64,000 nucleotides of DNA from Candidatus Multivoradales bacterium (GTDB lineage: Bacteria > Acidobacteriota > Thermoanaerobaculia > Multivoradales > JAHEKO01): the NCBI GenBank assembly GCA_965248055.1, contig CBDFIJ010000004.1, positions 2,823,908 to 2,887,907 on the forward strand, written 5' to 3'. Below, in pieces: positions 14,333-50,874 of this stretch. The notes beneath the pieces were generated by a model. That model did no database searches. It had not been told where the DNA came from and was given only the letters and a program-made list of their open reading frames with translations. The position numbers were made by a program, and so were the translations under genes. Positions within the stretch are counted from its first letter, which is position 1; each line of letters begins with the position of its first letter.

Positions 14333-14563
14333 ATGCAAATCGTCGCACTCGATCCAAGTTTCTACAAGTACTACCGTGAAGACATCGTTGTCTTAGGCTC
14401 TCAGGCTCGTGATCGGCTGCGCTTGGTTGCGAGCTTCGAGCAACTACGCGACAAGGGGATCTCGGGTGAAGAAGCAGCTCAGATCTTGGGCAAGAGTCGA
14501 GCTACCCTTTACCGCTGGCGCAAACGCCTTGAACGTGGCCCCCGACATCTAGGAGCTTGCTGA
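14333..14563 (+). pseudogene. IS481-like transposase, N-terminal HTH fragment, truncated by the IS5-like insertion
   Basis: GISGEEAAQILGKSRATLYRWRKRLERGPRHL, then read-through into the IS5-like inverted repeat (GAC-stop). Confidence 0.8.
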
Positions 14564-15868
14564 AAAACCCCACCACCGGACCATAACGATTCTATAATTG
14601 GGAATAGGAGGTTTTGATGCGTGGATCGGATCAAGGTCAGGGATCAATGTTCAGCTACGTTGACCTGGAACGGCGAATTCCTCGGTCTCATCCGTTGCGG
14701 CGGATCCGAAGTTTGATGGACGAAGCTCTTGGAGAGCTATCGGAGCGTTTTGAGACGATCTACGCTTCGAGTGGTCGCCCTTCGATTCCCCCCGAGCGTC
14801 TGCTCCGCGCATTGCTGCTTCAAGTGCTCTTCAGCGTGCGTAGTGAACGCCAGCTGATGGAGCAACTTGAGTACAACCTTCTATTTCGCTGGTTTGTCGG
14901 TCTTGGTATCGACGAGCGGGTGTGGGACGCGACGACGTTTTGCAAGAACCGAGAGCGCTTGCTCGAAGGTTCGATCGCGGAAGAACTGTTTGCAGCGGTG
15001 CTGTCTCAAGCCGAGGACCGTGATCTGCTGTCACCGGATCACTTCAGCGTTGATGGCACACTGATCGAGGCTTGGGCTTCGCACAAGAGCTTTCGGCCAA
15101 AGGACGAAGAGGTTAAACCTCTGGACGGTGGAGCGGACTTCCGAGGCCAGAAGCGGTTGAACCAAACGCACGCTTCGACGACCGACCCCGAGTCTCGGCT
15201 GTCGCGAAAAGGCCGTGGTAAGGAAGCAAAACTAAGCTACCGGGGCAACATTCTGGTCGAGAACCGGCACGGGATGATTGTCAACACCGAGGTCAACATC
15301 GTCACCGGCAACGGTGAGACAACAGCGGCTCTGGCCATGCTGGAGCAGCGGGCTAGCAATCATCGCGTCACGGTGGGTGCTGACAAGGGCTATGACAACC
15401 GAGCGTTTGTAGAGAATGCGAGGAAGCTGAATGCGACACCTCACGTAGCGCAAAGCACCAAGAATCGCCGCAGCCGGATTGACCGACGCACCACTCGCCA
15501 CGCAGGTTACGAGATCAGCTTGGCGAGACGACCGAGAGTCGAGGCACCCTTCGGCTGGCTCAAACAGTACGGACTGCAACGCAGACCGATGTTTCGAGGC
15601 GTAGCCCGCATCGGTTGGTCTTTCACTTTTGCGGCAACAGCGTTTAACTTGCTCCGAATAGCCAATCTGAGCGCGCCAACATGACGAATTTCTATCCCAA
15701 GTGCTCCTCAAATCGCTCGAATCACCCGTTAGGGCGAATCGAAGAGCTGACCCAAGGGGTCACCAACACCCTCAACTCGCCAGCCACCTTGATTCGTCTC
15801 CACATTCAAAGTACTTCGACCGTTATGACCACTGAAATTAGCTCCGTTGCCCTTTTTTCAGCAGGCTG
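14553..15868 (+). mobile_element. IS5-family insertion sequence (1316 bp) with a 4-bp CTAG target duplication
   Basis: IRL GAGCTTGCTGAAAAA (14553-) matches the reverse complement of IRR, CAGCCTGCTGAAAAAA (-15868). Direct CTAG at 14549-14552 and 15869-15872. Contains a single DDE transposase gene. Confidence 0.85.
14617..15684 (+). CDS. IS5-family DDE transposase (InsH-like N-terminal domain plus DDE_Tnp_1)
   Basis: AGGAGG lies 8 nt before the ATG. GSMFSYVDLERRIPRSHPLRRIR, SIPPERLLRALLLQVLFSVRSERQLMEQLEYNLLFRWFVGL, FSVDGTLIEA and GADKGYD are typical of IS5-group transposases. Confidence 0.9.
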   Translation: MRGSDQGQGSMFSYVDLERRIPRSHPLRRIRSLMDEALGELSERFETIYASSGRPSIPPERLLRALLLQVLFSVRSERQLMEQLEYNLLFRWFVGLGIDERVWDATTFCKNRERLLEGSIAEELFAAVLSQAEDRDLLSPDHFSVDGTLIEAWASHKSFRPKDEEVKPLDGGADFRGQKRLNQTHASTTDPESRLSRKGRGKEAKLSYRGNILVENRHGMIVNTEVNIVTGNGETTAALAMLEQRASNHRVTVGADKGYDNRAFVENARKLNATPHVAQSTKNRRSRIDRRTTRHAGYEISLARRPRVEAPFGWLKQYGLQRRPMFRGVARIGWSFTFAATAFNLLRIANLSAPT

Positions 15869-15872
15869 CTAG

Positions 15873-16690
15873 AACCGATATCAAGCCGACCCAAGCGGGT
15901 GCGTAAGGCTGACTGGTCACCTGAATTGGTACAGAGAGTCGAAAGTCTCCGTCGAGACTTTCCTGCCTGGGGCAAGGAAACCCTAGCGCCGCTGATCCAG
16001 GGCGAGGGCTTTGAGGTATCAGAAGCCACTGTCGGGCGTATCTTGCGCAAATTGATGGATCGAGGGGTAATCCACCGGGTACGCTACCGGCGCCAGAAGT
16101 ACAAAAACTCCCGGCGTATGCGCCGGCTCCACGCTCAGCGACTGCCGAAATGGTGTCCCCGACCAACGCGCCCTGGCGAGCGACTGCAGATCGACACGCT
16201 GCATCTGGTCCCTGCTCCAGGCAAGTGGCTCAAACACTTTTCAGCCTCCTGTCCGGTCAGCCGGTGGACAGTGGGAGAGATCTATCAACGTGCCACTTCT
16301 CGCTGTGCAGCACGCTTTCTAGACAAAGTCATTGCCGAGTGTCCGTTTGACATCACCTCGATCCAAGTGGACGGTGGTAGTGAATTTATGGATGAATTTG
16401 AGAAAGCCTGCCGAGATAGAGGCATCACCCTCTATGTGCTGCCGCCAAAGAGTCCGAAGCTCAACGGCACCGTCGAACGAATGCAGGAAACCTGGAGAGG
16501 AGAGTTTTATGAAATGTATGAGCTACCCGATACTGTCTCGGCTTTGAGACCTTACATCCAGAGATTCCAGGACCTCTACAACACCTACAGGCCGCACAAG
16601 AGCTTGAAAAGAAAACCCCCGGCAAGGTACCTTAGAAAGCTCGACCCAGGGGTCGTGCTCCCGCCGACTGTCTCAAAGGTACTGATCTAG
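15873..16690 (+). pseudogene. IS481-like transposase, C-terminal integrase-core (rve) fragment
   Basis: GERLQIDTLHL, IQVDGGSEFMDEF and YNTYRPHKSL form the DDE/rve core. Deleting 14553-15872 joins it in frame to 14333-14552 (...RGPRHL-E-PISSRPKRVRKADWSPEL...). Confidence 0.8.
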
Positions 16691-16728: not shown

Positions 16729-16734
16729 TTAGCC

Positions 16735-16855
16735 TGCATCAAGAGCGTTCGGGTGACCGAACGCGGCAACCTGGGAAGGACACCCAAGGTGCCAACCCGC
16801 CAACCCGCGGTGGGGATGTGGTCGGCCACGGTAAGCCGGTAACGAAGGTCCCAAA
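16735..16855 (+). promoter_or_regulatory. SAM-binding riboswitch of the SAM-I clan (S-box core; simplified P2, so SAM-I/IV-like)
   Basis: Core strings in order: AUCAAGAG (16738-), short hairpin CGUUCGG-GUGA-CCGAACG, GGCAACC, hairpin CCUGGG-aaggaca-CCCAAGG, then UGCCAACCC, and GAUG closing P1. It sits directly upstream of metH. Not confirmed by a covariance model. Confidence 0.6.
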
Positions 16856-16860
16856 TCTTA

Positions 16861-16890: not shown

Positions 16891-16933
16891 GTATTTGGAG
16901 ATGCCTAGTTGACGTTTGAGGTGTGAGGAATCA

Positions 16934-19900
16934 ATGAGCAGTATTGAAATCGATACCGAATCGCTAGTTGCGGAGTCCATAGTTCCAGAAACGCTAGCCC
17001 CACCGAGCGATCTGAAACAGCGCCAAGCCTCTTTGGCGGATGCGCTCCAAGAGCGGATCTTGGTGTTGGACGGTGCCACCGGGACAGCACTGCAAGACGC
17101 TGATCTTCAGCCCACTGACTTCGGGCGAGCCGAGTGGGAGGGTTGTAACGAGGCACTGTGTGAGACCAGGCCAGACGTCATTCTCGGGGTACACCGCATC
17201 TATCTGAACGCGGGTGCGGACATTGTTGAGACCAATTCTTTTGGCAGCACGCCCTTGGTGCTGGCGGAATTCGATGTGGCGGAGAAGGCATTTGATTGGA
17301 GTCGACTGTCCGCGCAGCTCGCACGCCAAGCAGTGGCCGAGGTTGCCGCACAACGGACTGCCTTTGTCTGCGGTTCAATGGGACCAACAACCAAGGCGCT
17401 GTCGGTCACCGGGGGCGTTAGCTATGACCAACTGGTTCAGCACTTCTGCGTTCAAGCGTGCGGGTTGATGGCTGGTGGTTGTGATTATATTCTGATCGAA
17501 ACCTGCCAGGACACGCTCAACATCAAGGCGGCGGTGGAAGGAGTTCGTGGCGCCGTCGCCAAATGCGGCTGGAGCATCCCAATTGCCGTCTCGGTGACCA
17601 TCGAAACTAGCGGCACCATGCTCGCCGGACAAGATGCCGAAGCTCTGGCAGTCTCGCTGGCACACCTTGATCTGCTCTATTTAGGGCTCAACTGCGCCAC
17701 AGGTCCGGACTTGATGGCGGACTCGCTGCGCACTCTCTCAGAGCTGGCGCGGGTGCCGGTTGCCTGTGTCCCCAATGCTGGGCTACCAGACGAGAATGGC
17801 ATCTACCAACAGCGACCGGCGGACTTTGTCGAGGCGTTTTCCAGATTTCTCGACCAGGGGTGGGTTAATTTGGTTGGCGGTTGCTGTGGCACCGAAGCGG
17901 AGCACGTGCGAGCGCTCGCAGACCTAGTGCGAGGCCGCACGCCGAGGCCACTGGCGGTTCATTCACGTCGCTTGGTGTCTGGAATCGAGGCGGCGGAACT
18001 CGACGCCGACAGTCGCCCTCTGCTGGTAGGGGAACGGACCAACATTTTGGGCAGCAGGAAGTTTCGAGGTCTGATCGCATCCGGAGACTTTGAGACCGCC
18101 GCCGAGGTCGGGCGTTCTCAAGTTCGAGGTGGCGCCCAGGTGGTTGATGTATGCCTGCAAGATCCGGAGCGCGATGAAGCCGCAGAAATGAAGCAATTCT
18201 TGACAGTGCTGACCAAGAAGGTGCGAGCACCGTTGATGATCGACACCACCGATCCAGAGGTGATGGCGGTGGCTCTCCGCCTATGCCAGGGAAAGGCGGT
18301 ACTCAATTCGGTCAATCTAGAAGACGGCGAAGAACGTTTTCTCCGGGTCGTGGCTCTGGCTCTCAAGAATGGAGCTGCGATGATCGTCGGCCTGATCGAC
18401 GAGCAAGGGATGGCGGTCTCGGTGGAACGTAAGATCGAGGTCGCTCAGCGATCGGTAGATGTCATGCGTCGTGAAGGAGTTCGAGATGAAGACGTCTGGT
18501 GGGACGCCTTGGTCTTTCCTTGCGGCACCGGAGACCCTGAGTACGTTGGTTCAGCGGCCGCGACGCTGGCCGGTGTCGAGCGACTGAAAAGCGAATTTCC
18601 TCTCTCGTCAACCGTACTCGGCGTTTCCAATATCAGCTTTGGGTTGCCGCTGCCAGGGCGCGAGGTATTGAATTCCGTGTTCTTGCATCGCGCGACGCTG
18701 GCCGGTTTGGACGCCGCGATCGTCAACACTGAGAGACTCGCCCGATTTGCCGAGATCGCCTCTGAGGACCGGAATCTGTGCGACCAACTGCTGAATCTGC
18801 AGGCGGGTGAAACCGAGAAGGCCGATACCGCGGTCCAGGAATTCACCGCCCATTTTCGCACTCGCAAAGTGGTGGCGACCAAACCGCGTAGTGAAATGCC
18901 ACTGGCAGAGCGGCTGGCCAATGCGGTGATCGAGGGGAGTCGCGAGTTCCTGGTCGAAGATCTGGAGGTGGCCTTGTCTGAAGAGCAGTGGCCAACCCCG
19001 CTAGCAGTGATCAACGGCCCGTTGATGACCGGAATGGATGAGGTCGGGCGGCGATTCAACGCCAATGAGCTGATCGTTGCCGAGGTGCTGCAGAGCGCCG
19101 AAGTGATGAAGGGCGCGGTCGACTACTTGGAACCCTTCATGGACAAGGACGAAACCGCCTCGCGCGGCCGCGTGCTATTGGCGACCGTCAAGGGCGACGT
19201 TCATGACATCGGCAAGAATCTGGTCGATATTGTGCTTTCAAACAACGGCTTCGAGGTGGTCAATCTTGGCATCAAGGTGCCGAGCGAGACTTTGATTCAA
19301 GCCGCGCGGGAACACCAACCCGATCTCATCGGTCTTTCAGGCCTGTTGGTCAAGAGCGCTCACCAAATGGTAGCTACCGCGTCGGACTTGCGTGCGGCTG
19401 GAGTCGAGGCACCACTGTTGGTGGGAGGGGCTGCATTGTCGCGCCGTTTTACCCATCAACGAATCGCGACCGAGTACGCTGGTCTGTGCACCTACGCCAA
19501 AGACGCAATGCACGGATTGGAGTTGGTGCGCCGCATTCTGGACCCAGCTCTGCGTTCGGAGTTGGATGGCGAAGTGGCTGAAGCCCAAGCCACCGATCGA
19601 GCACAAGGGGTGGGGTCAACGCGCATCAGCAACGCCCGTCGCGCTGCCAAGCCGAAGATTGACAACGATTTTGCTGCACCAGTGCCACCCGATTTGCGGT
19701 TGCACCGAGAGAACTTCGCGGTCGAAGACATCTGGCCTTGGGTTAATCCACAAATGCTGTATGGCAAGCATCTTGGCCTGCGCGGTTCGGTGGCCAAACT
19801 CGCCCAACAGCAGGATGGAAAGCACCAGTTGTTGCAAGCTGCGGTGCAACAAGCGCAAGCGGACTGGAAGGAGCATCAATTCGAGGTGCGCGGCGTGTGG

Positions 19901-20458
19901 CGCTTCGTGGCGGCAAGACGCGACCAGGATCAAATACTGTTGAGTTTGCCGGAGTATCACTCGCTGGTGGGTTGGAGTTTTTCGCGCCGGGCCGAGTCCG
20001 ATCAGCTCTCGTTGGTCGACTACATTCTTCCCGAGGATCATTTGGCGCTGTTCGCGGTAACCGTCGATCGGCGAGTGGCAGAGCGCTCCCGAGTTCTAAA
20101 AGACGCCGGGGAGTATTTGGCGAGCCACACCTTGGCGGCGTTGGCGTTAGAGACTGCCGAGGCGGCAGCCGAATTCTTGCATCGCAATCTGCGCCAAGCG
20201 TGGGGCTTTGGAGATCCTGAGTCAACGACTGTGGCTGATGTGATCAAGGGCCGGTATCGCGGCCGTCGATACAGCTTCGGCTATCCAGCGTGCCCGGATC
20301 TTGAGGGGCAGCGGTTGCTGCTCGAAGTGCTAGATGCGCCGTCGATTGACCTTCAGCTGACCGATGGCGACATGATGGACCCGGAAGCGTCGGTTTCGGC
20401 TTTGGTATTCCATCACCCGGAAGCCAAGTACTTCGGTGTCGCCGAAGGCCTAGATTAA
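16934..20458 (+). CDS. metH: Cobalamin-dependent methionine synthase
   Basis: Hcy-binding, pterin-binding, B12-binding (GDVHDIGKN, SGLL) and AdoMet-activation domains are all recognisable. ATG at 16934 is preceded by GAGGAA; the track ORF starts at TTG 16916. Confidence 0.95.
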   Translation: MSSIEIDTESLVAESIVPETLAPPSDLKQRQASLADALQERILVLDGATGTALQDADLQPTDFGRAEWEGCNEALCETRPDVILGVHRIYLNAGADIVETNSFGSTPLVLAEFDVAEKAFDWSRLSAQLARQAVAEVAAQRTAFVCGSMGPTTKALSVTGGVSYDQLVQHFCVQACGLMAGGCDYILIETCQDTLNIKAAVEGVRGAVAKCGWSIPIAVSVTIETSGTMLAGQDAEALAVSLAHLDLLYLGLNCATGPDLMADSLRTLSELARVPVACVPNAGLPDENGIYQQRPADFVEAFSRFLDQGWVNLVGGCCGTEAEHVRALADLVRGRTPRPLAVHSRRLVSGIEAAELDADSRPLLVGERTNILGSRKFRGLIASGDFETAAEVGRSQVRGGAQVVDVCLQDPERDEAAEMKQFLTVLTKKVRAPLMIDTTDPEVMAVALRLCQGKAVLNSVNLEDGEERFLRVVALALKNGAAMIVGLIDEQGMAVSVERKIEVAQRSVDVMRREGVRDEDVWWDALVFPCGTGDPEYVGSAAATLAGVERLKSEFPLSSTVLGVSNISFGLPLPGREVLNSVFLHRATLAGLDAAIVNTERLARFAEIASEDRNLCDQLLNLQAGETEKADTAVQEFTAHFRTRKVVATKPRSEMPLAERLANAVIEGSREFLVEDLEVALSEEQWPTPLAVINGPLMTGMDEVGRRFNANELIVAEVLQSAEVMKGAVDYLEPFMDKDETASRGRVLLATVKGDVHDIGKNLVDIVLSNNGFEVVNLGIKVPSETLIQAAREHQPDLIGLSGLLVKSAHQMVATASDLRAAGVEAPLLVGGAALSRRFTHQRIATEYAGLCTYAKDAMHGLELVRRILDPALRSELDGEVAEAQATDRAQGVGSTRISNARRAAKPKIDNDFAAPVPPDLRLHRENFAVEDIWPWVNPQMLYGKHLGLRGSVAKLAQQQDGKHQLLQAAVQQAQADWKEHQFEVRGVWRFVAARRDQDQILLSLPEYHSLVGWSFSRRAESDQLSLVDYILPEDHLALFAVTVDRRVAERSRVLKDAGEYLASHTLAALALETAEAAAEFLHRNLRQAWGFGDPESTTVADVIKGRYRGRRYSFGYPACPDLEGQRLLLEVLDAPSIDLQLTDGDMMDPEASVSALVFHHPEAKYFGVAEGLD

Positions 20459-27358: not shown

Positions 27359-27741
27359 GAGATAGGCCCCCGCCCGCCGGGATGACGGGAAGGCAGATGT
27401 GTTTGGAACTACAGACTGACGGTGCCTTCTTTATGGTGAGGGGTTTACCCCCTCCCGCTTCTGCTGCCCACCGTCGCTCTCGGGCTGCGTCCCGGCTCCT
27501 CTCCTTCCTTGTGACGGGACGACGAATGGGGTGACGCTGAAAGCTGATCGACCCTCTTCGTAGGGAGCAGGTGAAGCTGCCGCTCCGGCGCGCCAGGTAT
27601 CCCCACACGCCCTTCTCGTATTTCGAAAATCTGGCGTTTGATTTGCACTAGCTTTTCGCGAGCAGCTACCGCCGAGCACAGTCCCATGGTTTCCAAGAAA
27701 ACAATCACCAACCGTAAGGCGAAAAGGGCACGACTCGTTCC

Positions 27742-36681: not shown

Positions 36682-36745
36682 CTGACCGACACTGTCGCTG
36701 GCCGGCACTGTTACTGGCCGGCACTGTTACTGGTCGGCACTGTTT
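36682..36745. repeat. Four tandem 16-bp direct repeats in the intergenic region upstream of the thioredoxin-like gene
   Basis: CTGACCGACACTGTCG / CTGGCCGGCACTGTTA / CTGGCCGGCACTGTTA / CTGGTCGGCACTGTTT, read directly. Confidence 0.9.
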
Positions 36746-39063: not shown

Positions 39064-40697
39064 GGTCGCTTCGCCTTCAACAGACTCAAAGCGCAGAGGG
39101 CACCCGGTGCGCCCATGATGCCGCCGCCAGGGTGGGTTCCAGAACCGCACATCCACAGTTTGCGGATCGGCGATTGGTAGCGTGACCACCCGGCGACCGG
39201 CCGTTGAAACGCGAGCTGCTCCAAGGACAACTCACCGTGGAAGATGTTGCCTTCGGTGAGACCGTAGATCTGCTCCATGTCCCAGGGGCTCAGCACCTGG
39301 CGATGCAAGATCAGAGACTTAAAGTTGGGCATGTATTCGCTGAGAGTGTCGATCACCGCGTCGCCGAAGGCGTCGCGATGTTGGGGCCAAGACTCAGGCC
39401 CATCAGCCAAGTGATACGGTGCATATTGAACGAAAATCGACATCACGTGTTTGCCCGGCGGCGCCACGCCGGGATCGGTTAAAGAGGGAATGACGATGTC
39501 CATGAACGGACGTTTGGAAAAGCGACCTCGCTTGGCGTCGTCGTAGGCGTTTTCCAAATACTCTAGGCTGGGGGCGATAGTGATGTCGCCTCGCAGGTGC
39601 CGACCTTGACCAGGCAAGCAAGCGAACTCGGGAAGGCCGTTGAGTGCCAAGTTGACCTTGCCCGAACTTCCGCGCAGTTTGTAGCGTCGTAGCCCGGTGG
39701 CAAACTCCTCGGGAAGGTGTTTTTCACCCACCATGCCAAAGAATGTCCGGCGCGGCTCGGCACCCGAGATCACGTGTTTGGCACTAATATCATCTCCGTT
39801 CTCCAAGACCACGCCAGTCGCCGAACGACCGCGAATGCGAATGCGCTCGACCGGTGCGTCGACCAAGATTTCCGCGCCGTGGGCCTGTGCCGATAGCGCG
39901 ATCGCGTCCGCTACCGAACCGGTTCCGCCGCGCGGAATACCCCAGGCGCGGTAGGCGCCATCAATGTCGCCCATGTAGTGGTGTAGCAAGACGTAGGCAG
40001 TGCCGGGTGAGCGCACGCCGAGGAAAGTGCCGATGATGCCGGAGACCGACATCGGGGCGATCAGATGCTCGTCTTCAAAGTAACGTTCGAGAAAGTCGAC
40101 CGCGCTCATGGTTGAGATCCGGTAGAGCGTCTCACTTGCGTCGCCCAGACCTCGGCCCAGTTTGAGCATGCGACCCAGATCTTGCAGCGTTGGCGAGATT
40201 GGGTCGGGCACCGGCTCGTCGATCAGAGAACGAATGCGCCGACCTAGTTCGCTCATCTCTCGCCCGAACTTGGGATATGCGTCGGCGTCTGTGGGCGAAA
40301 ACTGAGCGATCGCCCGGCGCGTGCGGTGCGGGTCGGCGTCGCGCAACAGATAGCGTCCATCGGGAAACGGAGTGAAGGTCTCATCGAGTGGAAATACTCG
40401 ATAGCCGAAGCTCGGCAAATCCAGATGGCGGACGATCCACGGTCGCATTAGGCTGACCACGTAGGAGCACGCCGAGTAGGTAAAGCCGGGGTGAGTCTGC
40501 TCGCTGGTGGTGACGCCACCAATTTGCGATCGCTGTTCGACAACTAATACTTTGCGCCCCGCCTTGGCCAGAAAGCCGGCGCAGACCAGGCCGTTGTGCC
40601 CCGCGCCGACGATGATCGCGTCGTAGTGGCTGCGCGTTGGCTTGCCGGAAGCAAACTGAGGCCGCCCTGCCATCATGGTGCCGTTGAGCTTGGTCAT
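39060..40697 (-). CDS. FAD/NAD(P)-dependent oxidoreductase, phytoene-desaturase (CrtI) superfamily; paralog of the downstream gene
   Basis: YDAIIVGAGHNGLVCAGFLAKAGRKVLVVEQRSQIGG and C-terminal LWMCGSGTHPGGGIMG. 4-nt overlap with the gcvT-like stop. Confidence 0.8.
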   Translation of the reverse strand: MTKLNGTMMAGRPQFASGKPTRSHYDAIIVGAGHNGLVCAGFLAKAGRKVLVVEQRSQIGGVTTSEQTHPGFTYSACSYVVSLMRPWIVRHLDLPSFGYRVFPLDETFTPFPDGRYLLRDADPHRTRRAIAQFSPTDADAYPKFGREMSELGRRIRSLIDEPVPDPISPTLQDLGRMLKLGRGLGDASETLYRISTMSAVDFLERYFEDEHLIAPMSVSGIIGTFLGVRSPGTAYVLLHHYMGDIDGAYRAWGIPRGGTGSVADAIALSAQAHGAEILVDAPVERIRIRGRSATGVVLENGDDISAKHVISGAEPRRTFFGMVGEKHLPEEFATGLRRYKLRGSSGKVNLALNGLPEFACLPGQGRHLRGDITIAPSLEYLENAYDDAKRGRFSKRPFMDIVIPSLTDPGVAPPGKHVMSIFVQYAPYHLADGPESWPQHRDAFGDAVIDTLSEYMPNFKSLILHRQVLSPWDMEQIYGLTEGNIFHGELSLEQLAFQRPVAGWSRYQSPIRKLWMCGSGTHPGGGIMGAPGALCALSLLKAKRP

Positions 40698-41953
40698 TTA
40701 CGTTTCCAGGGTGGGTTGTAAAACGGCAGCGGGCTGACGGTCGCTGGCACTTGGCGACGATCGTAATCCACCGTGTGTTCTACCTGAAGCTCAGAGCCGA
40801 CCTCGGCGTAGGACGGCTCGACCGACGCCAGCGCCAGCGCTTTCTTGAGCACCGGAGACCAGGTATGGCTGGTCACTTGGCCCACCTGTCTACCCGAATG
40901 GGCATAGACCGGTAAGGCCTCTCGGGAGGCTGATCCCGGCAAATGCGGTGGCAGGTCGTATTCGCCGTAGAGCTTGGTGATCGCGGCGAAGTCCAATTCC
41001 AGGCCCACCAGTTGAAGACGGGGAGTTCGCCGCGCTTGGAGCAATGCTGTGCGGCCGACAAAGTCTTCGCGGTCGAGGTGAGTCATCCAATCCCACCCCA
41101 GTTCAAACGGAGTTGAACGCTGCGCGACGCGCACCTCCTCATGGGCGCCGCGGTAGTCGATTCCATGCAGCAGATAGCCGGCCTCGATGCGGCTGATGTC
41201 GAGCGCGTCGAGGCCAACCGGTTGCAGGCCATGGCGTTCGCCGACTTCCATCAGTCGATCCCACAGTGGCAGGGCGTAGTTGACGTCGACCCAGATCTCG
41301 TAGCCCAAGTCACCGCTGTAGCCCGTGCGGGTAACCCAACCGGCGATCCCTTGGGGGCTTGTCGGCGGCTCCCAGGAAAATGATTGGGCAGCGAAGTACT
41401 TGAGCTGACTCAACGGTTTGCCCAACGCTTCACTGACCACCGCCTGCGAGCGCGGACCTTGGATCGCCAGCACCGCGAGGTCGTCGCTCTGGTCACGAAC
41501 TTCCACCGCACCACCGGTCGCCAACTTGCGCAGCCAGTCGAGGGCTGGCTCGGCGGCGGTGATGCGAAATTGCTTCTTTGCCAAACGGGTGATGGTGCCG
41601 TCATCGATCACCATCCCCTGATCGTCGCACCAGCAGCAGTAGGCAACCCTCCCGACGCGCAGCTTGCTGATGTCGCGCACCACCATGCGATTGAGTACCG
41701 CCCCCGCGTCTGGTCCGGAAAGATGGTATTTATAGAGTGGTGAAACGTCGATCAACCCCGCCGATTGGCGCAAGGCGAAGTACTCACGCTCAACATTGAC
41801 ATCGTAAGCACAAGCCGCGATCCGTCCCGCCCAATCCTTGAATCGATAGGTTTCGCACAAGGGAAAAGTGCGCTCGTGGAAAGGGCTGGGGATGGGCATG
41901 AATGAAATGGGACTAGTTGGTCCGGCAACTAGCGACCTCGGCGAATTTAGCAT
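40694..41953 (-). CDS. Aminomethyltransferase-family protein (GcvT/DmdA-like, folate-binding)
   Basis: EYFALRQSAGLIDVSPLYKYHLSGPDAGAVLNRMVVRDISKLRVGRVAYCCWCDDQGMVIDDGTI and TGYSGDLGYEIW are GCV_T motifs. An alternative ATG lies at 41899. Confidence 0.8.
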   Translation of the reverse strand: MLNSPRSLVAGPTSPISFMPIPSPFHERTFPLCETYRFKDWAGRIAACAYDVNVEREYFALRQSAGLIDVSPLYKYHLSGPDAGAVLNRMVVRDISKLRVGRVAYCCWCDDQGMVIDDGTITRLAKKQFRITAAEPALDWLRKLATGGAVEVRDQSDDLAVLAIQGPRSQAVVSEALGKPLSQLKYFAAQSFSWEPPTSPQGIAGWVTRTGYSGDLGYEIWVDVNYALPLWDRLMEVGERHGLQPVGLDALDISRIEAGYLLHGIDYRGAHEEVRVAQRSTPFELGWDWMTHLDREDFVGRTALLQARRTPRLQLVGLELDFAAITKLYGEYDLPPHLPGSASREALPVYAHSGRQVGQVTSHTWSPVLKKALALASVEPSYAEVGSELQVEHTVDYDRRQVPATVSPLPFYNPPWKRK

Positions 41954-41994
41954 GCGTTTTTTGCGCCCGCCGCCCGGTGACAGTCGGCACCAAC

Positions 41995-43043
41995 GTCATC
42001 CCAGCGAAGAGCCTCTTCCTTATGTCATTCCGGCGGAGAACCTCCCCCCAGGTCATCCCAGCCAAGAAGTCTCTTCCAATGTCATCCCGGCGGGGGGAGG
42101 GAGGGGGGCCGGGATCTAGTGGCGTCAAGATACCGGCCTTGAGTCTCCGGCGCTGTTGCAGATCCCCGACCCCCAAACCCCCGCCCTACGGGAATGACGA
42201 CCGATAGGACCTTCCTCCGGTCATCCCGGCGGGGGAGCTTCCCCCCCTATGTCATCCCGGCGGGGGGAGGGAGGGGAGCCGGGATCTCGTGGCGTCAAGA
42301 TACCGGCCTTGAGTCTCTGGCGCTGTTGCAGATCCCCGACCCCCAAACCCCCGCCCTACGGGAATGACGACCGATAGGACCTTCCTCCGGTCATCCCAGC
42401 GGGGGAGCTTCCCCCCCTATGTCATCCCGGCGGGGGAAGGGAGGGGGGCCGGGATCTCGTGGCGTCAAGATACCGGCCTTGAGTCTCTGGCGCTGTTGCA
42501 GATCCCCGACCCCCAAACCCCCACCCTGCGAGGATGACGAGGAAGCGTCCGAGGGAGATGACGCTATGAAGTGCCTCAGACGGCATGACCATCGTAGGGA
42601 CTCCCCCAAAGTCATCCCGGCGGAGAACCTCCCCCCAGGTCATCCCAGCCAAGAAGTCTCTTCCAATGTCATCCCGGCGGGGGAAGGGAGGGGGGCCGGG
42701 ATCTCGTGGCGCCAAGATACCGGCCTTGAGTCTCTGGCGCTGTTGCAGATCCTCGACCCCCAAACCCCCGCCCTACGGGAATGACGACCGATAGGACCTT
42801 CCTCCGGTCATCCCGGCGGGGGAGCTTCCCCCCTATGTCATCCCGGCGGGGGAAGGGAGGGGGGCCGGGATCTCGTGGCGTCAAGATACCGGCCTTGAGT
42901 CTCTGGCGCTGTTGCAGATCCCCGACCCCCAAACCCCCACCCTGCGAGGATGACGACCGATAGGACCTTCCTCCGGTCATCCCGGCGGGGGAGCTTCCCC
43001 CCTATGTCATCCCGGCGGGGGATAGGGAGGGGGGCCGGGATCT
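41995..43043. repeat. Hierarchical tandem repeat array: three ~29-nt solo ends, then six ~170-bp units (last truncated), each holding a ~118-nt imperfect palindrome
   Basis: Units begin at 42081, 42251, 42421, 42668, 42837 and 43006, and are near-identical by eye. The GTCATCCCGGCGG motif recurs, and its reverse complement closes each palindrome. Details in findings. Confidence 0.95.
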
Positions 43044-43091
43044 GTCCGGGGCCACCCTGACTCTCGCTGATCACTGGTCCCCAACCCGCGG

Positions 43092-44420
43092 TTACCTTTT
43101 TCCGATGCCGAGTTGCTCAACCACCCAGGCGAAATCCGGCGCATGCATCGCGCCGGGCGTAGCCAGCCGAGCAATGCCCAATTCTTTGGCTACTGCTTGT
43201 ATTTCAGATGCGACCACAAGACTTGTTGTCTCACTGCCGCTGACGTTACTGCCAGGCAGGTCGGGGCCCGCTACCACGGAACCCACTAATTCAGGGCCAG
43301 CGACCGCCAGGCTCTGGATCTGACCCGCAACCGGTCGTAGCCGCTCAACTAGGCCTCCGACCCCAACTCCTCCGTGGACCCGCACGCATCGGCCTCCTGG
43401 AGACTCCTCGACCGCTTGATCTGGCGCGGCAGCGACCACCAAGCCTGTGGCTAGGGGTTGGTCGGAAACCGCTAGCCCTGCCGCTACCGCCGCGTCGCGA
43501 ATTTGCCGCAGGGCGCCGAGTGTGGCTGCGCTGGCTGAAGGAGGAAGCTGGTCCGTTACTCGAGCCAAAGCACGCCCCAGGCTATGAACGATTGGTTCCG
43601 CCGGCCCCCAGGTGAGCACGGCATGGGGACACAAGCATCCCCGCTGGTCGAATCGAGCAATGTCCAGCGCGATGGCGTCGAGAATCGCCTCATCGACTGC
43701 GGACTCCCCCAGGTAGACCAGCGACCAGCCATGCCCCTGACCGGAGACTGCGATGCCGGGCTCAGCTCCAGGCTGAAGCTGGTTGCTGAATTGCTCGTTG
43801 AATTGCTCGTTGAATTGGGCGACGGTGGCGTCCTCGCCATAAACAATTACCCGGTCGAAGTCGATTGCGTTGATGGTGTCAGAGGAGAGATCGATCTCGT
43901 CCAAGATCGCGATCGCGTTTGTCAGCGCCGGGTCCAGCCGACACAGCACTTCCACCAGAAGGCGGGCGGTATGCGGCTCCCTGCGTGAGGGCTTGAGGAT
44001 GACGGCGGAACCGTAAGCCAGGAGTGGCAGCAACGACTGGGCGGCGAGCCCGGGGACGCTGGCCGCCAGGACTACGAGGGTCACTGGCCGCGGGGATGCC
44101 GAGTTGCTGTCGCGGTCAGGACTCATCTCCGGTAGAGCACTCTCGGTCAGCGAACTCGCGGTCAGTCCAAACAGCAGGGTGGTGACGCTGTTGAGGACCG
44201 TCGCCGGATGCATCGCGACGCTGGCGGAGATCACCTCTAGGTTTTTCTCAATCGCCATTTGGTAGGCCGGGCAGGCTCGTTGCCACAACCGGCGCCACTC
44301 TTGGATCGTATGCTGGCCGGCTATCGGGCCAGCATTGCGTCGTAGTCGTTGGACGATCTGGCGCAACGATACCGACTCGTTGGAAGCAGAAGGGGCTGAC
44401 TCTCTGGCTGGAGGGGGCAC
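43092..44420 (-). CDS. LuxC-like acyl-CoA (acyl-protein) reductase, aldehyde-dehydrogenase superfamily
   Basis: VILKPSRREPHTARLLVEVL and FDQRGCLCPHAVL (catalytic Cys context), plus adjacency to a LuxE-like gene. Family assignment is by motif only. Confidence 0.6.
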   Translation of the reverse strand: MPPPARESAPSASNESVSLRQIVQRLRRNAGPIAGQHTIQEWRRLWQRACPAYQMAIEKNLEVISASVAMHPATVLNSVTTLLFGLTASSLTESALPEMSPDRDSNSASPRPVTLVVLAASVPGLAAQSLLPLLAYGSAVILKPSRREPHTARLLVEVLCRLDPALTNAIAILDEIDLSSDTINAIDFDRVIVYGEDATVAQFNEQFNEQFSNQLQPGAEPGIAVSGQGHGWSLVYLGESAVDEAILDAIALDIARFDQRGCLCPHAVLTWGPAEPIVHSLGRALARVTDQLPPSASAATLGALRQIRDAAVAAGLAVSDQPLATGLVVAAAPDQAVEESPGGRCVRVHGGVGVGGLVERLRPVAGQIQSLAVAGPELVGSVVAGPDLPGSNVSGSETTSLVVASEIQAVAKELGIARLATPGAMHAPDFAWVVEQLGIGKR

Positions 44421-44450: not shown

Positions 44451-45788
44451 TCAGCCTTCGGCGTCAGACGGCTGGTCCGGTTGCAATTGCCCGCTGAGCA
44501 ATGAACAGCCGCGCAGATCGGCACCCACCGCGCGTCCGAGGAGCTGAAATCCTGGGCTGCCGTTACCGGTGGAGTCCTCTGATTGCAGAGTTGGCATTAC
44601 ACCTAAGTCTTGGGTCAAGACGTGGATCGAACTACTGAGGTTGGCCAGATCGAGCACCGTGATCAAGCCAGGCGTGCCGGGAGCGACTTCTTGTAAGGTG
44701 GCGGGGTCGAGAATGCGCACCCGTACCCAGTGTGGAGGGGCGAATAGCTCGGCACTCCGCAACTCCGGGTCGGGCAACTCGGAATCAGGCAAGACGGAAT
44801 CAGGTAAGTCGGCATGAGGATGCTGACCGCGTGCGTCTGCGGGCACTAGGTCTTCGGGAACTACGTCTGCGGGAACTAGGTCTTCGGGGACTAGGTCTTC
44901 GGGGACTATGTCTGCGGGAACTAGGTCTTCGGGGACACTGTAGAACTGACTGGTGAGCTCGGTCATGCCGTATTCACTGGTCACCGACTCCTCGCTCAGG
45001 TCCAAGTGGGTGGCAATCAGCGCCAAAATCTCGCCGCGATCGAGCGTCCGGGTCTCAGTTTTGCTGCCTCCAGTGTGTAAGACCACACTTCCTGGTGGCA
45101 GGCGAAAGCGCAGGCCAAACTTCGCCAAGCGTTCCAGAGCCTGCATCAGGGCCAAGGAAGTGGCGACGATGACCACCGGGCGGCCGCCCCGTTGCCCGGC
45201 CCCCAGCCAAGAGCGAAGCAGTCCGGCGTTCAGACCATTCTGTGACCACCCGTAGGCCGAACGTCCCGATCCGTAACTCGCCATGATGTGGTTGACCATG
45301 AACGCCAGGCTGGACTGTGGCGCCGCCTCGGGTGGCGGAACCAGAGACAAAATATCGACCCGTCCTGCTGGAACCCGGGCGCCGAAGGAGGCTTCGATAG
45401 TGGCGCGGTAGAGGTCCAAGAACGCGTGCGGGTGCTGGCTCGGACGACCGCTGGTGCCGCTGCTCAGAAATACTGTTTCCGCAGACCCGATGCCGATCTC
45501 CAGGTTCTTGTACGCCAGGGTCGGTAAAGCTGGGATTTGGCTCCAAGAGGTGACTTGTCCGGGGTCGAGATCGCGGTCAGCCCACAGCCGCTGCAACGGT
45601 TCGCTGAGGCTAGCCTGGGCTCGCCCAGCCGCTAGCGCCAGCTGGTTGAAGTCGCCCTCGGACTCTGACCGGATGAACCGGGTGATGGCGTCAATCATCT
45701 GTGGGTCGATGGCGACGGGAGATTGCACCGCCGTATTCTGCCACGCGGCGACCGGTCGGGACATCGCTCGAGGCTGGGAACCCACCAC
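44451..45788 (-). CDS. LuxE-like acyl-protein synthetase (adenylate-forming, ANL superfamily) with an internal pentapeptide-repeat insert
   Basis: VFLSSGTSGRPSQH (AMP-binding P-loop variant typical of LuxE/PaaK-like enzymes) and SEYGMTELTSQFY. Adjacent to the LuxC-like gene. Confidence 0.6.
   Translation of the reverse strand: MVGSQPRAMSRPVAAWQNTAVQSPVAIDPQMIDAITRFIRSESEGDFNQLALAAGRAQASLSEPLQRLWADRDLDPGQVTSWSQIPALPTLAYKNLEIGIGSAETVFLSSGTSGRPSQHPHAFLDLYRATIEASFGARVPAGRVDILSLVPPPEAAPQSSLAFMVNHIMASYGSGRSAYGWSQNGLNAGLLRSWLGAGQRGGRPVVIVATSLALMQALERLAKFGLRFRLPPGSVVLHTGGSKTETRTLDRGEILALIATHLDLSEESVTSEYGMTELTSQFYSVPEDLVPADIVPEDLVPEDLVPADVVPEDLVPADARGQHPHADLPDSVLPDSELPDPELRSAELFAPPHWVRVRILDPATLQEVAPGTPGLITVLDLANLSSSIHVLTQDLGVMPTLQSEDSTGNGSPGFQLLGRAVGADLRGCSLLSGQLQPDQPSDAEG
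44771..44939 (-). repeat. In-frame tandem 15-nt repeats inside the LuxE-like CDS
   Basis: Seven consecutive 15-mers at 44835-44939 (GTCTKCGGGRACTAS-type) encode VPEDL/VPADx pentapeptides. Three related 15-mers at 44771-44815 encode LPDSx. Confidence 0.9.
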
Positions 45789-45850: not shown

Positions 45851-45902
45851 TGGCAGCGGTGATTGGCAGTGACGTTTAGCAGTGACGATTAGCAGTGACG
45901 AT
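45851..45902. repeat. Four tandem 13-bp direct repeats in the luxE-like/ferredoxin divergent intergenic region
   Basis: TGGCAGCGGTGAT / TGGCAGTGACGTT / TAGCAGTGACGAT / TAGCAGTGACGAT, read directly. Confidence 0.9.
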
Positions 45903-47725: not shown

Positions 47726-47772
47726 GCTAGATAGACCTTGAACAAAGGTTGTTCGACACGTACCCTTCGTCC

Positions 47773-50700
47773 ATGCCGCATGGCAAGTTCGGGTTGAAGC
47801 CAACCCACGAAGCTGTCAGGAAGTACTACCGCGCTCTGGAAGAAGCTGCGCAGCTCCATATCGACCATGAACTGGGCGTTAAACATGCCTTCGAGGGTCT
47901 CCTTGAACACTGCGCCAAGAGGTTCTATGGCTGGAACTTTGCCCGCGAAAAGACGGTTCGTCTCGGGGCCAAAACTCTGCGTCCAGATGGCTTGATTCTC
48001 GATAACTATGAACTCAGTCGCGGCTGGTTTGAAGCCAAGGACACCCAGGATGAGCTGACCAAAGAGGCCCGATCGAAGTTTGCGGTTGGCTATCCCAAGC
48101 GCAACATCCTGTTTTGGCAGCCAGGGCGGGTGTTGTTGTTTCAAGATGGTGTTCAAGTTCTAGATGTTGACGCAACAGAGCCCCAACCACTGGTCGACGC
48201 GCTGCGGCTATTTTTCGAACATCAAGAACCGGACATCGACGAGTGGGAGCGAGCGGTAGAAGAATTCAAGGAGCGGATTCCTGAGTTGGCCGACTCCCTG
48301 CTCAAACTTGTCCACGACGAACGTCCCAAGAACAAAGCTTTCCAGACCGCCTTCAAGCGTTTCTACGATCTCTGCAAGGTCTCTCTTAATCCAAACCTCT
48401 CCGAAGCGGCAGTGGAAGAGATGTTGATCCAACATTTGCTGACCGAGCGGATCTTTCGCAAGGTCTTCGACAACGACGATTTCCGGCGTAAGAACGTGAT
48501 CGCGGCGGAGATCGAAACCGTGATCGATGCCCTAACCTCCAAGAGCTTCTCTCGGCATGACTTTGTTAAGAAGCTAGACCGCTTTTACGCTGCGATCGAA
48601 AACACCGCTCTGTCGATTGGCGACTACTCGCAGAAGCAGGGCTTCCTAAACACGGTCTACGAACAGTTTTTCCAGGGATTCTCGGTCAAGGTCGCTGACA
48701 CTCACGGAATTGTCTACACCCCACAACCAATCGTTGATTTCATGGTCAAGAGCGTTGACCAGCTATTGAAATCCGAGTTCGGCAAGGCGGACGGCCTGGC
48801 TTCGCCGGGAGTTCATGTACTCGACCCGTTCGTTGGCACCGGCAACTTCCTCCTCCGGGTGTTGCGGCAGATCGCCGACGGCAAGAAGACCAACTTGCCA
48901 GAGAAGTACCTCAACGAGCTACACGCCAATGAGGTGATGCTGCTGCCCTACTACATCGCTTCGATGAACATTGAGCACGAGTACCTGGAATTGGCGGGCG
49001 AGTACCGCCCCTTCCCGGGGGTTTGCTTGGTGGACACCTTTGAACTCGCCGAGGATAGGCAGATGGGGTTGTTCACCGAGGCCAATACCGAGCGGGTGGA
49101 GGCGCAGAAACAAGCGCCGATCCGGGTGGTGATTGGCAACCCTCCTTACAACGTCGGCCAGGTCAACGAGAACGACAACAACAAGAATCGCAAGTACTCG
49201 GTGATTGATGCGCGGGTCAAGGAGACCTACTCCAAGGATTCCAAGGCTTCGAGCAAGTCAAAGCTTGATGACCCCTACATAAAGGCGATCCGTTGGGCCT
49301 CCGACCGCATCGGAGACCAGGGGGTCGTCGCCTTGGTCTCCAACAATGGTTTTCTGGATGGCATCGCCACCGACGGCATACGCCAACACCTGGAAGAAGA
49401 TTTCGACCAGATTCACATCTTGGACCTGGGTGGCAACGTGCGCAAGAACCCCAAGCTCTCCGGAACCACCCACAACGTCTTCGGTATTCAAGTGGGAGTA
49501 TCAATCAACTTGCTGGTCAAGACCGGCAAGGGGCAGGGTCCAGCGACCCTGCATTACTATCGCACGGATGAGTTCTGGCGGAAGGAGGACAAGTATAGGT
49601 ATCTCGAAGAGGTGGGAGAGATCAATCATATCGATTGGAAGACTCTTGAGCCCGACGCCAAGCACACCTGGCTCACGGAGGGGATCGCGCCAGAGTTCGA
49701 CACGATGCCCGTTCTAGGAAGCAAAGGTGCGCAAGAGCGGGGATTACTTAAAGACGTTTTTTTTCAAAGGTATAGCCTTGGTGTAAGCACCAATCGAGAC
49801 GTCTGGGCCTACAACTTCGATTGGGAACGGCTCGCTGCCAACATCCGAAAGACGATTGATGCGTATAACGGTCATGTGACTCGCTGGGCGGCAATTGAAA
49901 GTGCTAAGCGAAAGCGCTCATTTATTGATCGTTTTGTAGACAATGATCCGAAGGAGATGGCTTGGAGTCGCGACTTGAAGCTGGATTTATTCCGCGAGAA
50001 GAGAGCTAAATTTAGAGAAGAAAAAATCCGACGATCTCTCTATCGACCCTTTTGCCGCCAGTTTCTGTTTCATGATTCGATTCTTAACGAAGAACCCAGG
50101 CATTTCCACGAGTTTTTTCCGACGGCTGCTCGCGAACAAGAGAATTGTTGCGTGTCCGTAGGCGGATACGGACGAAAGGACTTTGCGGTCTTGGCGGGGA
50201 ACAGCATCTTCGACCTAAATTTCTACGGTGACCCCCACCAAGTCTTTCCCTTCTACACCTACGATCCTGATGGCACCAATCGCAGCGAGAATCTCACCGA
50301 TTGGGCTCTGGCGGAGTACCGCGCCCACTACCAAGATGACTCGATCTCCAAGTGGGACATCTTCCACTACATCTATGCATTGCTGCATCACCCGGCCTAT
50401 CGCGAACGCTACAAGGTCAACTTGAAGAAATCCTTGCCGCGCATCCCCTACGCCCCGGTTTTTCATCCTTTTGCCGCAGCGGGGGAACGCCTGGCGGAAT
50501 TGCACGTCGAATACCAGTCGCAAACCGAATATCCGCTGCAGGAGATCTGGAAACCGGATACCGCGCTCGACCTGCGCGTCGAGCGCATGAAGTACAAACC
50601 GGCTGAGGGACGCATTGTCTACAACGATGTGCTGACCCTGGATGGGATTCCACCCACGGTCGAGGAGTACCGGCTCGGGAATCGTTCCGCGCTGGGGTGG

Positions 50701-50874
50701 GTGGTGGATCAATACCGGGTCAAGACCGACAAGCGTAGCGGCATCGTCAACGACCCCAACCGCGACGACGACCCGAAATCCATCCTGCGCCTCATCGGGC
50801 AGGTGATCACAATCAGCCTGGAAACCGTGGAGATCGTCAATAACCTTCCCGATTTGGGTTTGCCCAGCGATTAA
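47773..50874 (+). CDS. Single-polypeptide type IIG / type ISP-like restriction-modification enzyme (N-terminal PD-ExK-like motif, gamma-class N6-adenine methyltransferase, C-terminal specificity domain)
   Basis: LRPDGLILDNYELSRGWFEAKD (PD...EAK), VLDPFVGTGNFLL (AdoMet motif I), VVIGNPPYNVGQ (motif IV NPPY), and a C-terminal FHYIYALLHHPAYRERYKVNLKKSLPRIP...LGNRSALGWVVDQYRV that resembles the type ISP C-terminal domain. The track ORF starts at TTG 47749. Confidence 0.75.
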   Translation: MPHGKFGLKPTHEAVRKYYRALEEAAQLHIDHELGVKHAFEGLLEHCAKRFYGWNFAREKTVRLGAKTLRPDGLILDNYELSRGWFEAKDTQDELTKEARSKFAVGYPKRNILFWQPGRVLLFQDGVQVLDVDATEPQPLVDALRLFFEHQEPDIDEWERAVEEFKERIPELADSLLKLVHDERPKNKAFQTAFKRFYDLCKVSLNPNLSEAAVEEMLIQHLLTERIFRKVFDNDDFRRKNVIAAEIETVIDALTSKSFSRHDFVKKLDRFYAAIENTALSIGDYSQKQGFLNTVYEQFFQGFSVKVADTHGIVYTPQPIVDFMVKSVDQLLKSEFGKADGLASPGVHVLDPFVGTGNFLLRVLRQIADGKKTNLPEKYLNELHANEVMLLPYYIASMNIEHEYLELAGEYRPFPGVCLVDTFELAEDRQMGLFTEANTERVEAQKQAPIRVVIGNPPYNVGQVNENDNNKNRKYSVIDARVKETYSKDSKASSKSKLDDPYIKAIRWASDRIGDQGVVALVSNNGFLDGIATDGIRQHLEEDFDQIHILDLGGNVRKNPKLSGTTHNVFGIQVGVSINLLVKTGKGQGPATLHYYRTDEFWRKEDKYRYLEEVGEINHIDWKTLEPDAKHTWLTEGIAPEFDTMPVLGSKGAQERGLLKDVFFQRYSLGVSTNRDVWAYNFDWERLAANIRKTIDAYNGHVTRWAAIESAKRKRSFIDRFVDNDPKEMAWSRDLKLDLFREKRAKFREEKIRRSLYRPFCRQFLFHDSILNEEPRHFHEFFPTAAREQENCCVSVGGYGRKDFAVLAGNSIFDLNFYGDPHQVFPFYTYDPDGTNRSENLTDWALAEYRAHYQDDSISKWDIFHYIYALLHHPAYRERYKVNLKKSLPRIPYAPVFHPFAAAGERLAELHVEYQSQTEYPLQEIWKPDTALDLRVERMKYKPAEGRIVYNDVLTLDGIPPTVEEYRLGNRSALGWVVDQYRVKTDKRSGIVNDPNRDDDPKSILRLIGQVITISLETVEIVNNLPDLGLPSD

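Follow-up and report, generated by a model that had tools for sequence, protein, structure and literature searches.

Within the 64-kb stretch of DNA analysed here (the window, to which all coordinates refer), which belongs to an Acidobacteriota-like genome, an array of hairpin-forming repeats occupies the gap between a luxC-like and a gcvT-like gene (41994-43044; 1,051 nt, 65.8% G+C, no strand assigned). The array was delimited by Tandem Repeats Finder (TRF), a gapless repeat finder and RNA folding, and we consider it likely to be a tandemly amplified cluster of repetitive extragenic palindromic (REP) elements of the CGTC type. The genes around it all lie on the minus strand and encode, in order, a LuxE-like protein, a LuxC-like protein, then, beyond the array, a GcvT-like protein and two FAD oxidoreductases. 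Pfam agrees with the assignment of the two flanking genes made in a first-pass annotation of this DNA: relative to transcription, the LuxC-like acyl-CoA reductase gene (43092-44420, minus strand; PF05893, E 1.2e-21) lies on the upstream side of the array and the GcvT-like aminomethyltransferase gene (40694-41899, minus strand; PF01571 and PF08669) on the downstream side. The start of the latter had been placed at 41953, leaving a gap of 1.14 kb; judging by the 401-aa length of database protein P0001 and by an alignment of starts, in which homologues begin with MPIPSPFH, the most likely start is 41899, which widens the luxC-gcvT gap to 1.19 kb. For the GcvT-like protein and for an AcrB-like protein encoded elsewhere in the window, the closest named relatives come from Thermoanaerobaculia and Acidobacteriota metagenome-assembled genomes (MAGs), at 55-62% identity.

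TRF resolved the array into a period of 170 nt repeated 2.7 times (42079-42540, 96% matches, score 861), a period of 169 nt repeated 2.2 times (42666-43043, score 705) and two arrays of ~29-nt repeats (41990-42092 and 42601-42680). The gapless repeat finder returned six unit copies spaced by 170, 170, 247, 169 and 169 nt, and together the two programs reproduced almost to the base the unit starts and spacings first proposed by eye. The near identity of the units was likewise borne out by MAFFT alignment, with pairwise values of 94-100% and units U3 and U5 the same over 120 nt, and the alignment displayed the two right-end variants exactly as they had been listed. A higher-order duplication, also suggested earlier for the region from 42611 on, was recovered as a 223-nt block (42024-42246) present again at 42611-42833 with 97% identity in the gapless search. 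The 169-170-nt units are embedded in modules of 28-31 nt with the common head GTCATYCCRGC, of which 15 instances, all in plus-strand orientation, lie in the array and one elsewhere in the window (27376-27386, minus strand), 0.24 being expected by chance.

The first-pass annotation had described each unit as a ~118-nt imperfect palindrome with a linker. The unit does fold as a long hairpin (for 170 nt, -87.4 kcal/mol with z -3.45 on the plus strand and -91.1 kcal/mol with z -2.55 on the minus strand), but its arms agree in only ~37 of 59 aligned columns (~63%), with 8 gap columns, which is why the gapless inverted-repeat search of the array reported none; the palindrome makes better sense as two REP hairpins of ~40 nt each, joined in a head-to-head dimer. 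The left 39 nt of each long unit, REP-a, consist of TGTC, ATCCCGGC, 16-17 G-rich nucleotides, GCCGGGAT and CTN, a pattern that is perfect in all six copies and in which ATCCCGGC and GCCGGGAT form a perfect 8-bp stem. REP-a folds locally at -14.7 to -16.4 kcal/mol, similarly on both strands, and its copies are recovered by a generic search for an 8-bp stem preceded by GTCAT, for which 0.94 matches are expected in shuffled sequence. The right 41 nt, REP-b, read on the minus strand as CGTC, ATTCCCG, 20 G-rich nucleotides, CGGGGAT and CTG, and fold at -14.3 kcal/mol on that strand versus -5.9 kcal/mol on the plus strand. The REP-b stem is weaker than that of REP-a, with either 7 bp including one G-T pair or 8 bp including three, and an alternative inner hairpin (ATTCCCGT, AGG, GCGGGGGT) can be built with G-T pairs. 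All four transitions between the two REP-b variants preserve the pairing of this inner hairpin in a hand check of the fold, which suggests that the substitutions keep pairing, although with two variants only the observation is not statistical.

Between REP-a and REP-b lies a 40-nt spacer with a small stem of its own (TCAAG..CTTGA), conserved in each of the five head-to-head dimers. The 50 nt that separate successive dimers comprise a linker hairpin and a half-REP, s4, so that the additional solo end noted earlier in the linker proved to be present in each of them. Half-REPs, named s1 to s4, are modules of 28-31 nt in which the tag and one of three left arms (ATCCCAGC, ATTCCGGC or ATCCCGGC) are followed by GAAG, GGAG, CAAG or GGGG, tetranucleotides of the same purine type as those that make up the loop in classical copies; the right arm is missing, and a pyrimidine run pairs instead with the 'loop'. 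The tag is TGTC on six of six REP-a copies and CGTC on five of five REP-b copies, half-REPs bear CGTC, TGTC, GGTC or AGTC, and the tails are CTA, CTC or CTG.

The array thus described contains five dimers, one monomer and nine half-REPs. Read along the plus strand, it opens with half-REPs s1-s3 (41994-42079; heads at 41995, 42024 and 42052, where three solo ends had been annotated), in each of which the tag, the left arm ATCCCAGC or ATTCCGGC and the purine tetranucleotide are accompanied by a small hairpin. Dimer 1 occupies 42080-42199, with REP-a at 42080-42118 (plus strand, hairpin -14.7 kcal/mol), the spacer at 42119-42158 and REP-b at 42159-42199 (read on the minus strand), and is followed at 42200-42249 by the linker hairpin and half-REP s4 (plus strand, head 42220; fold -25.1 kcal/mol). 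Dimer 2 (42250-42369; REP-a 42250-42288, REP-b 42329-42369) folds at -65.1 kcal/mol on the plus and -63.9 kcal/mol on the minus strand, and its linker and s4, placed by alignment and pattern location, lie at 42370-42419 (plus strand, head 42390). Dimer 3 (42420-42539; REP-a 42420-42458, REP-b variant 42499-42539) is identical to dimer 5, and by pattern location the third unit stops exactly where a complete dimer ends. Here the series is broken by a 70-nt mosaic insert (42541-42610, no strand assigned), in which a degenerate inverted head, GGGAGATGACG, can be seen by eye; it is not repeated as a whole, and its description as unique was upheld by blastn, which found no second copy in the window. 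A second copy of half-REPs s2 and s3 (42610-42666, plus strand; heads at 42611 and 42639), identified through the 97% block match, then leads into dimer 4 (42667-42786; REP-a 42667-42705, REP-b 42746-42786), a linker with s4 (42787-42835, plus strand, head 42807), dimer 5 (42836-42955; REP-a 42836-42874, REP-b variant 42915-42955) and a last linker with s4 (42956-43004, plus strand, head 42976); the dimers were located by pattern and the two linkers by pattern and alignment. The array closes with a single REP-a with a 17-nt loop (43005-43044, plus strand), found by hairpin scan and pattern location. This copy had been taken for a sixth unit truncated at about 43043 and is instead a complete REP-a monomer.

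The predicted structure of the array as a whole is extreme. Its minus strand, the sense strand of the flanking genes, folds at -559.5 kcal/mol versus -486 +/- 10 kcal/mol in shuffles, and per nucleotide the array reaches -0.53 kcal versus -0.36 +/- 0.02 kcal for other 1-kb pieces of the window. Moreover, ten of the eleven G-quadruplex motifs of the window (four runs of G3+ with N1-7 between them) lie in REP loops, between 42092 and 43039, six on the plus and four on the minus strand. The array is non-coding: a coding repeat was rejected because the length of the unit cannot be divided by 3, and the longest translated open reading frame (ORF) of the array had no relative among 5.8 billion proteins.

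REPs of the CGTC type carry a terminal CGTC, often replaced by TGTC or CCTC, on a stem of 8-9 bp starting with A-T and T-A, followed in families 1-4 by a loop of 4-5 nt (other lengths occur in a few species) and by a three-base unpaired tail that is mostly CCA; they occur mainly as head-to-head dimers, whose 20-100-bp spacers show a tendency to conservation, and have no dedicated transposase (Di Nocera, De Gregorio & Rocco 2013, PMC3733652). The elements described here share with them the unpaired CGTC or TGTC tag of CGTC-1 REPs, present on every REP-a, every REP-b and on a solitary copy elsewhere in the window, an AT-initiated stem that is perfect in REP-a and weaker in REP-b, a dimeric head-to-head arrangement whose 40-nt spacer falls within the published range, a short unpaired tail, a position between same-strand genes (the solitary copy lies right after a stop codon) and the lack of an adjoining transposase gene. 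In addition, the stem ATCCCGGC/GCCGGGAT is identical to that of sphingomonad, Devosiaceae and metagenome copies. They differ in the G-rich, quadruplex-capable loops of 16-17 nt in the array, in a CTN rather than a CCA tail (CTC is also found in a Rhizorhabdus copy), in a REP-b stem of 7 bp with a wobble pair, in the tandem half-REPs without a right arm and in a host phylum outside the published list. Since tag, stem and dimers conform to the type but loop length and tail do not, we regard the array as one that works and is built like a CGTC REP cluster, while as a variant it falls outside the four CGTC families on record.

Several of these features weigh against the assignment. Loops are 16-17 nt long in REP-a and 8 nt in the solitary copy, in place of 4-5 nt, and tails are CTA, CTC or CTG. 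Clusters of CGTC REPs are called rare, with Neisseria (dRS3) and Wolbachia as exceptions, and the five phyla from which CGTC REPs were reported do not include Acidobacteria (PMC3733652). A CGTC REP family should comprise tens to thousands of dispersed copies in one genome, and the 64-kb window holds one other copy, a degenerate one. The half-REP modules have no counterpart in the REP literature compared, and the likeness to alphaproteobacterial REPs extends over ~22 nt, much of which is fixed by palindromy, so that the resemblance may be due to convergence. Finally, the mRNA-level role and the promoter considered below are drawn by analogy.

The same hairpin design was found outside the window. 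Among the 121 matches listed in a reference-genome scan with the 16-mer GTCATCCCGGCGGGGG, three, from Devosiaceae (L004), from Rhizorhabdus argentea (L028) and from a Chloroflexaceae MAG (L015), are true hairpins, each of them in another phylum or class; chance matches dominate the listing, and by blastn the matches align to the unit only over the 16-18-nt seed region, at most ~21 nt. With a generic scanner the external copies fit a tag, an 8-bp stem starting with AT, a 4-nt purine loop and a CCA or CTC tail. The Rhizorhabdus copy reads CGTC, ATCCCGGC, GGGG, GCCGGGAT, CTC; within 8 kb its locus holds two dimers of the head-to-head kind, in which variant stems (ATTCCAGC/GCTGGAAT) occur, and on plasmids of Sphingopyxis, Sphingobium, Sphingomonas and Tistrella the dimer has matches in DNA without annotation. 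The 170-nt unit of the window had no match on plasmids. In the Chloroflexaceae copy the loop is G-rich and 8 nt long. Metagenome contigs, scanned with a gapped pattern (GTCATCCCGGCGGGG, 80-110 nt, GGRATGAC), gave ten loci, of which L127, L129 and L131 are palindromic elements and not coding coincidences, the first two having the same design with a 4-nt loop. At L131 (7199-7323 of contig QMCE01001722.1) there is a 125-nt near-perfect palindrome with the same GTCATCCCGGCGGGG ends and without local REP hairpins, and its ends resemble half-REP s4 of the window. A scan of viral contigs for tandem heads produced matches that were coding-sequence coincidences (L135 and L143 left out), and a full-text literature search for the head sequence returned only primers.

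Comparison with relatives shows the array to be a derived state. Two relatives, with 71% GcvT identity and 80-81% AcrB identity, keep the gene order of the window over more than 40 kb. Among the related loci, luxC and gcvT overlap by 26 nt in L002 and are separated by 84 nt in L123, an opposite-strand ORF of 303 aa with no Pfam match on record lies between them in L001 (8944-9855), and in L122 the upstream neighbour is a different one; going by these gene orders, the junction is a recurrent site of change. The head motif is absent from all four loci. As the repeat is missing from relatives that are syntenic over more than 40 kb, the array is an insertion specific to this lineage, enlarged through duplication. 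The solitary copy mentioned above, which is the window's second REP locus, is a degenerate REP on the minus strand (27359-27387) that reads CGTC, ATCCCGGC, GGGCGGGG, GCCTAT.. with a G-rich loop of 8 nt and begins directly after the stop codon of the AcrB-like gene. The gap between this gene and the following PBP gene measures 383 nt in the window versus 83 and 238 nt in the relatives, in both of which the REP is missing from the corresponding position. REPs were thus gained at two separate places in this lineage, which fits invasive repeat DNA and not a conserved regulator.

We propose that a REP dimer, or a few REPs, would have entered an originally tight luxC-gcvT junction, that the dimer with its 50-nt flank of linker and half-REP would then have been amplified through unequal recombination or slippage between identical heads, and that a larger block of ~430-520 nt would have been duplicated later. 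The identity of U3 and U5 and the 97% likeness of the 223-nt blocks are signs of recent duplication, and tandem reiteration of REP dimers together with flanking DNA has been described for REP clusters generally. The DNA of the array is most likely selfish or neutral in origin, and we give any selected function, as opposed to tolerated junk, roughly half the probability of the class assignment itself.

The array was also compared with the bacterial interspersed mosaic elements (BIMEs) of E. coli and the REP doublet (REPIN) clusters of Pseudomonas, which likewise consist of inverted REP pairs clustered in the intercistronic gaps of operons and form large hairpins. Those elements, however, carry a GTAG tag and are tied to REP-associated tyrosine transposases (RAYTs), whereas the tag of the array is (C/T)GTC; GTAG occurs in the array only inside REP-b, in three of five copies, the other two having GCAG, and BIME linker motifs are absent. 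No Y1 transposase domain was detected in 38 ORFs of the window up to ~58.6 kb (58.5-64 kb and several small ORFs left out), and the only transposases among the ORFs scanned are of the IS5-like and rve types.

Resemblance to REP/BIME or to Correia-like miniature inverted-repeat transposable elements (MITEs) had both been raised in the first-pass annotation; the tag, the 8-bp stem and the dimers sustain the former. If the array were of MITE origin, the 118-nt palindrome would itself be mobile, its GTCATCCCGGCGGGG ends serving as the terminal inverted repeats at which a DDE transposase, encoded elsewhere, would cut, and the array would have arisen by repeated adjacent insertion. Correia elements and other MITEs are indeed intergenic, measure ~120-150 nt, are bounded by inverted repeats and can sit inside operons, and the inverted ends and conserved core of the unit, the L131 palindrome with the same ends and no local REP hairpins, and the lineage-specific gain of both the array and the solitary copy are all consistent with such an origin. 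However, no copy is flanked by a direct repeat or target-site duplication, no cognate insertion sequence (IS) is present in the window, the ends of its two IS elements (TCTAGGAGCTTGCTGAAAAA) being unrelated, and the weakly matched arms contain indels, yet each end folds on itself into its own perfect 8-bp REP stem. Furthermore, what was amplified is the dimer plus 50 nt of flank, and the exact 169-170-nt spacing of these units argues for duplication and not for repeated insertion. We therefore judge a MITE unlikely.

As for the CGTC REP cluster itself, there is a slim chance that the half-REPs and the expanded, quadruplex-capable loops record active insertion or copying of CGTC-type REPs targeted to hairpin tips in an Acidobacteriota-like lineage. 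If true, this locus and its host genome would offer a way to approach the spread of CGTC REPs, which have no transposase of their own, and would amount to an array similar to neisserial NIMEs (intergenic mosaic elements) outside Neisseria.

A related proposal is that the array, like NIMEs, promotes exchange or rearrangement of neighbouring genes through recombination, which we hold to be rather improbable. NIME arrays are runs of dRS3 (ATTCCCN8GGGAAT) separated by repeats of 19-214 bp, and are said not to occur outside Neisseria (PMC1797815). Both arrays are long and intergenic, both have a short hairpin (20 bp and of CGTC-1 type in NIMEs) recurring between repeated segments, and NIMEs too are dynamic in copy number; dRS3 is classed as CGTC-1, REP-b begins with ATTCCCG, each relative has a luxC-gcvT junction of a different form (an overlap, a gap of 84 nt, the 303-aa ORF or another neighbour), and the half-REPs could be scars of hairpin-targeted insertion. 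The hairpin nevertheless differs from dRS3 in sequence and loop length, NIMEs adjoin surface-protein genes and contain many RS families whereas the array reiterates one dimer-plus-flank unit, and its REPs alternate in orientation; the two architectures are analogous only. There is no recombinase or prophage gene adjoining the array, the flanking genes are metabolic and do not encode surface antigens, the surrounding gene order is kept over more than 40 kb, and the recombination role of NIMEs is itself a hypothesis.

Still less credible is a structured RNA with a dedicated role, whether as a cis-regulatory leader of gcvT or as a series of small RNAs, under selection for function on the sense strand. 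REP-b pairs well only on the minus strand, that of the mRNA, through G-U pairs (-14.3 versus -5.9 kcal/mol), its variant substitutions keep sense-strand pairing in the hand check, the predicted structure is very stable and nearly all G-quadruplex motifs of the window (10 of 11) fall in the array. Against this, the element is absent from relatives with the same operon, and with only two sequence variants covariation has no statistical power. A search of Rfam 15, which the first-pass annotation had named as a check, yielded no family in the array at gathering thresholds; with permissive settings the best E was 0.31, for miRNA-precursor models, which is generic hairpin noise. A glycine riboswitch precedes gcvT in many bacteria; none was detected here, and this candidate was rejected on the lack of an Rfam match.

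An assembly artefact, in which a short repeat was inflated or mis-joined by the assembler, is very improbable: tandem units of 94-100% identity are hard to assemble from short reads, but the array sits in a 3.35-Mb contig, has its variants arranged in order, contains a 70-nt insert, breaks cleanly at the edges of REPs, and is continued on both flanks by syntenic genes. Three further candidates were discarded. A CRISPR was rejected for want of spacers, and iterons for lack of neighbouring replication genes and of helical spacing. In the attC sites of integrons the palindrome is bounded by the core sites RYYYAAC ... GTTRRRY; here the ends are GTCATCC... and ...GGAATGAC on both strands, with no R''/R' core sites, and a cluster of attC sites lacking an integrase (CALIN) was dismissed.

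The consequences of a CGTC REP cluster at this position can be considered in the light of E. coli, where REP and BIME sequences are known to stabilise mRNA (as REP-stabilisers), to attenuate transcription and to be bound and cleaved by gyrase. By this analogy, the array is probably transcribed from the luxE-luxC side and uncouples the two gene groups: transcription from luxE-luxC would run into it and yield a ~1-kb run of very stable hairpins, which would shield the upstream mRNA from 3'-5' decay and attenuate read-through, so that luxEC would be uncoupled from gcvT and the two oxidoreductase genes. The latter would use a candidate promoter of their own in the 95 nt below the array, and gcvT probably has such a promoter, again by analogy. 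A candidate extended -10 element, GCATGCTAAATTC, is located in this stretch between the array and the gcvT start (41942-41954, minus strand). The 11-mer CGCATGCTAAA, common to the window and to the related locus L001 (about 9947-9960) at a similar distance from the gcvT ATG, reads as TGnTAAAnT and is a possible extended -10 promoter, and both of its carriers have an interrupted luxC-gcvT junction. A pattern scan of 41700-43300 found neither a sigma-70 promoter pair nor an intrinsic terminator. The earlier statement, which allowed only for read-through transcription of the array or for a promoter inside it, goes too far, given a candidate outside it.

Other repeats and genes of the window are recorded here in their own right. 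The luxE-like gene contains a 15/45-nt tandem repeat of 6.6 copies (44835-44936, minus strand) that codes for a PEDLV-type peptide repeat, and its product has 445 aa versus 358-367 aa in relatives. Short tandem repeats near the gene cluster were found just upstream of luxE (45861-45902, 13 nt x3.2), within luxC (43787-43817, 12 nt x2.6) and between a MauE-like and a thioredoxin-like gene (36682-36744, 16 nt x3.9). A SAM-I/IV riboswitch (16731-16856, plus strand; RF01725, 46 bits versus a gathering threshold of 41.1) lies directly upstream of the gene for B12-dependent methionine synthase (metH, 16916-20458). Between the MTHFR gene (13105-14052) and metH there is a nested insertion (14334-16690), in which an IS5-like element (ORF 14614-15684, inverted repeats 14548-14567 and 15854-15873) lies inside an IS3-like element (rve-domain ORF 15899-16690); in the related locus L146 metH follows the MTHFR gene after a gap of ~185 nt. 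A Type ISP restriction-modification gene (47749-50874, plus strand) encodes a coupler, an N6 methylase and C-terminal specificity domains, and has a homologue at the matching edge of L001.

Since the array belongs to a known class, REP clusters, it is not to be chased as a new system. The first-pass annotation had not recognised it as a described element; the kind is described, CGTC clustering being on record for Neisseria and Wolbachia, but this version departs from it in loops, half-REPs and host. What is new is modest: the host lineage, the 16-17-nt quadruplex-capable loops, the half-REPs and the before/after comparison with relatives. With this array, CGTC-type REPs would be extended to an Acidobacteriota-like genome, and the occurrence of the stem ATCCCGGC in Alphaproteobacteria, in a Chloroflexaceae MAG and in the window raises the question of horizontal spread or constraint by a conserved host factor. 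Moreover, a gene pair that ancestrally overlapped and is now split by 1.2 kb of hairpins would provide a natural experiment on how REP clusters affect operon expression.

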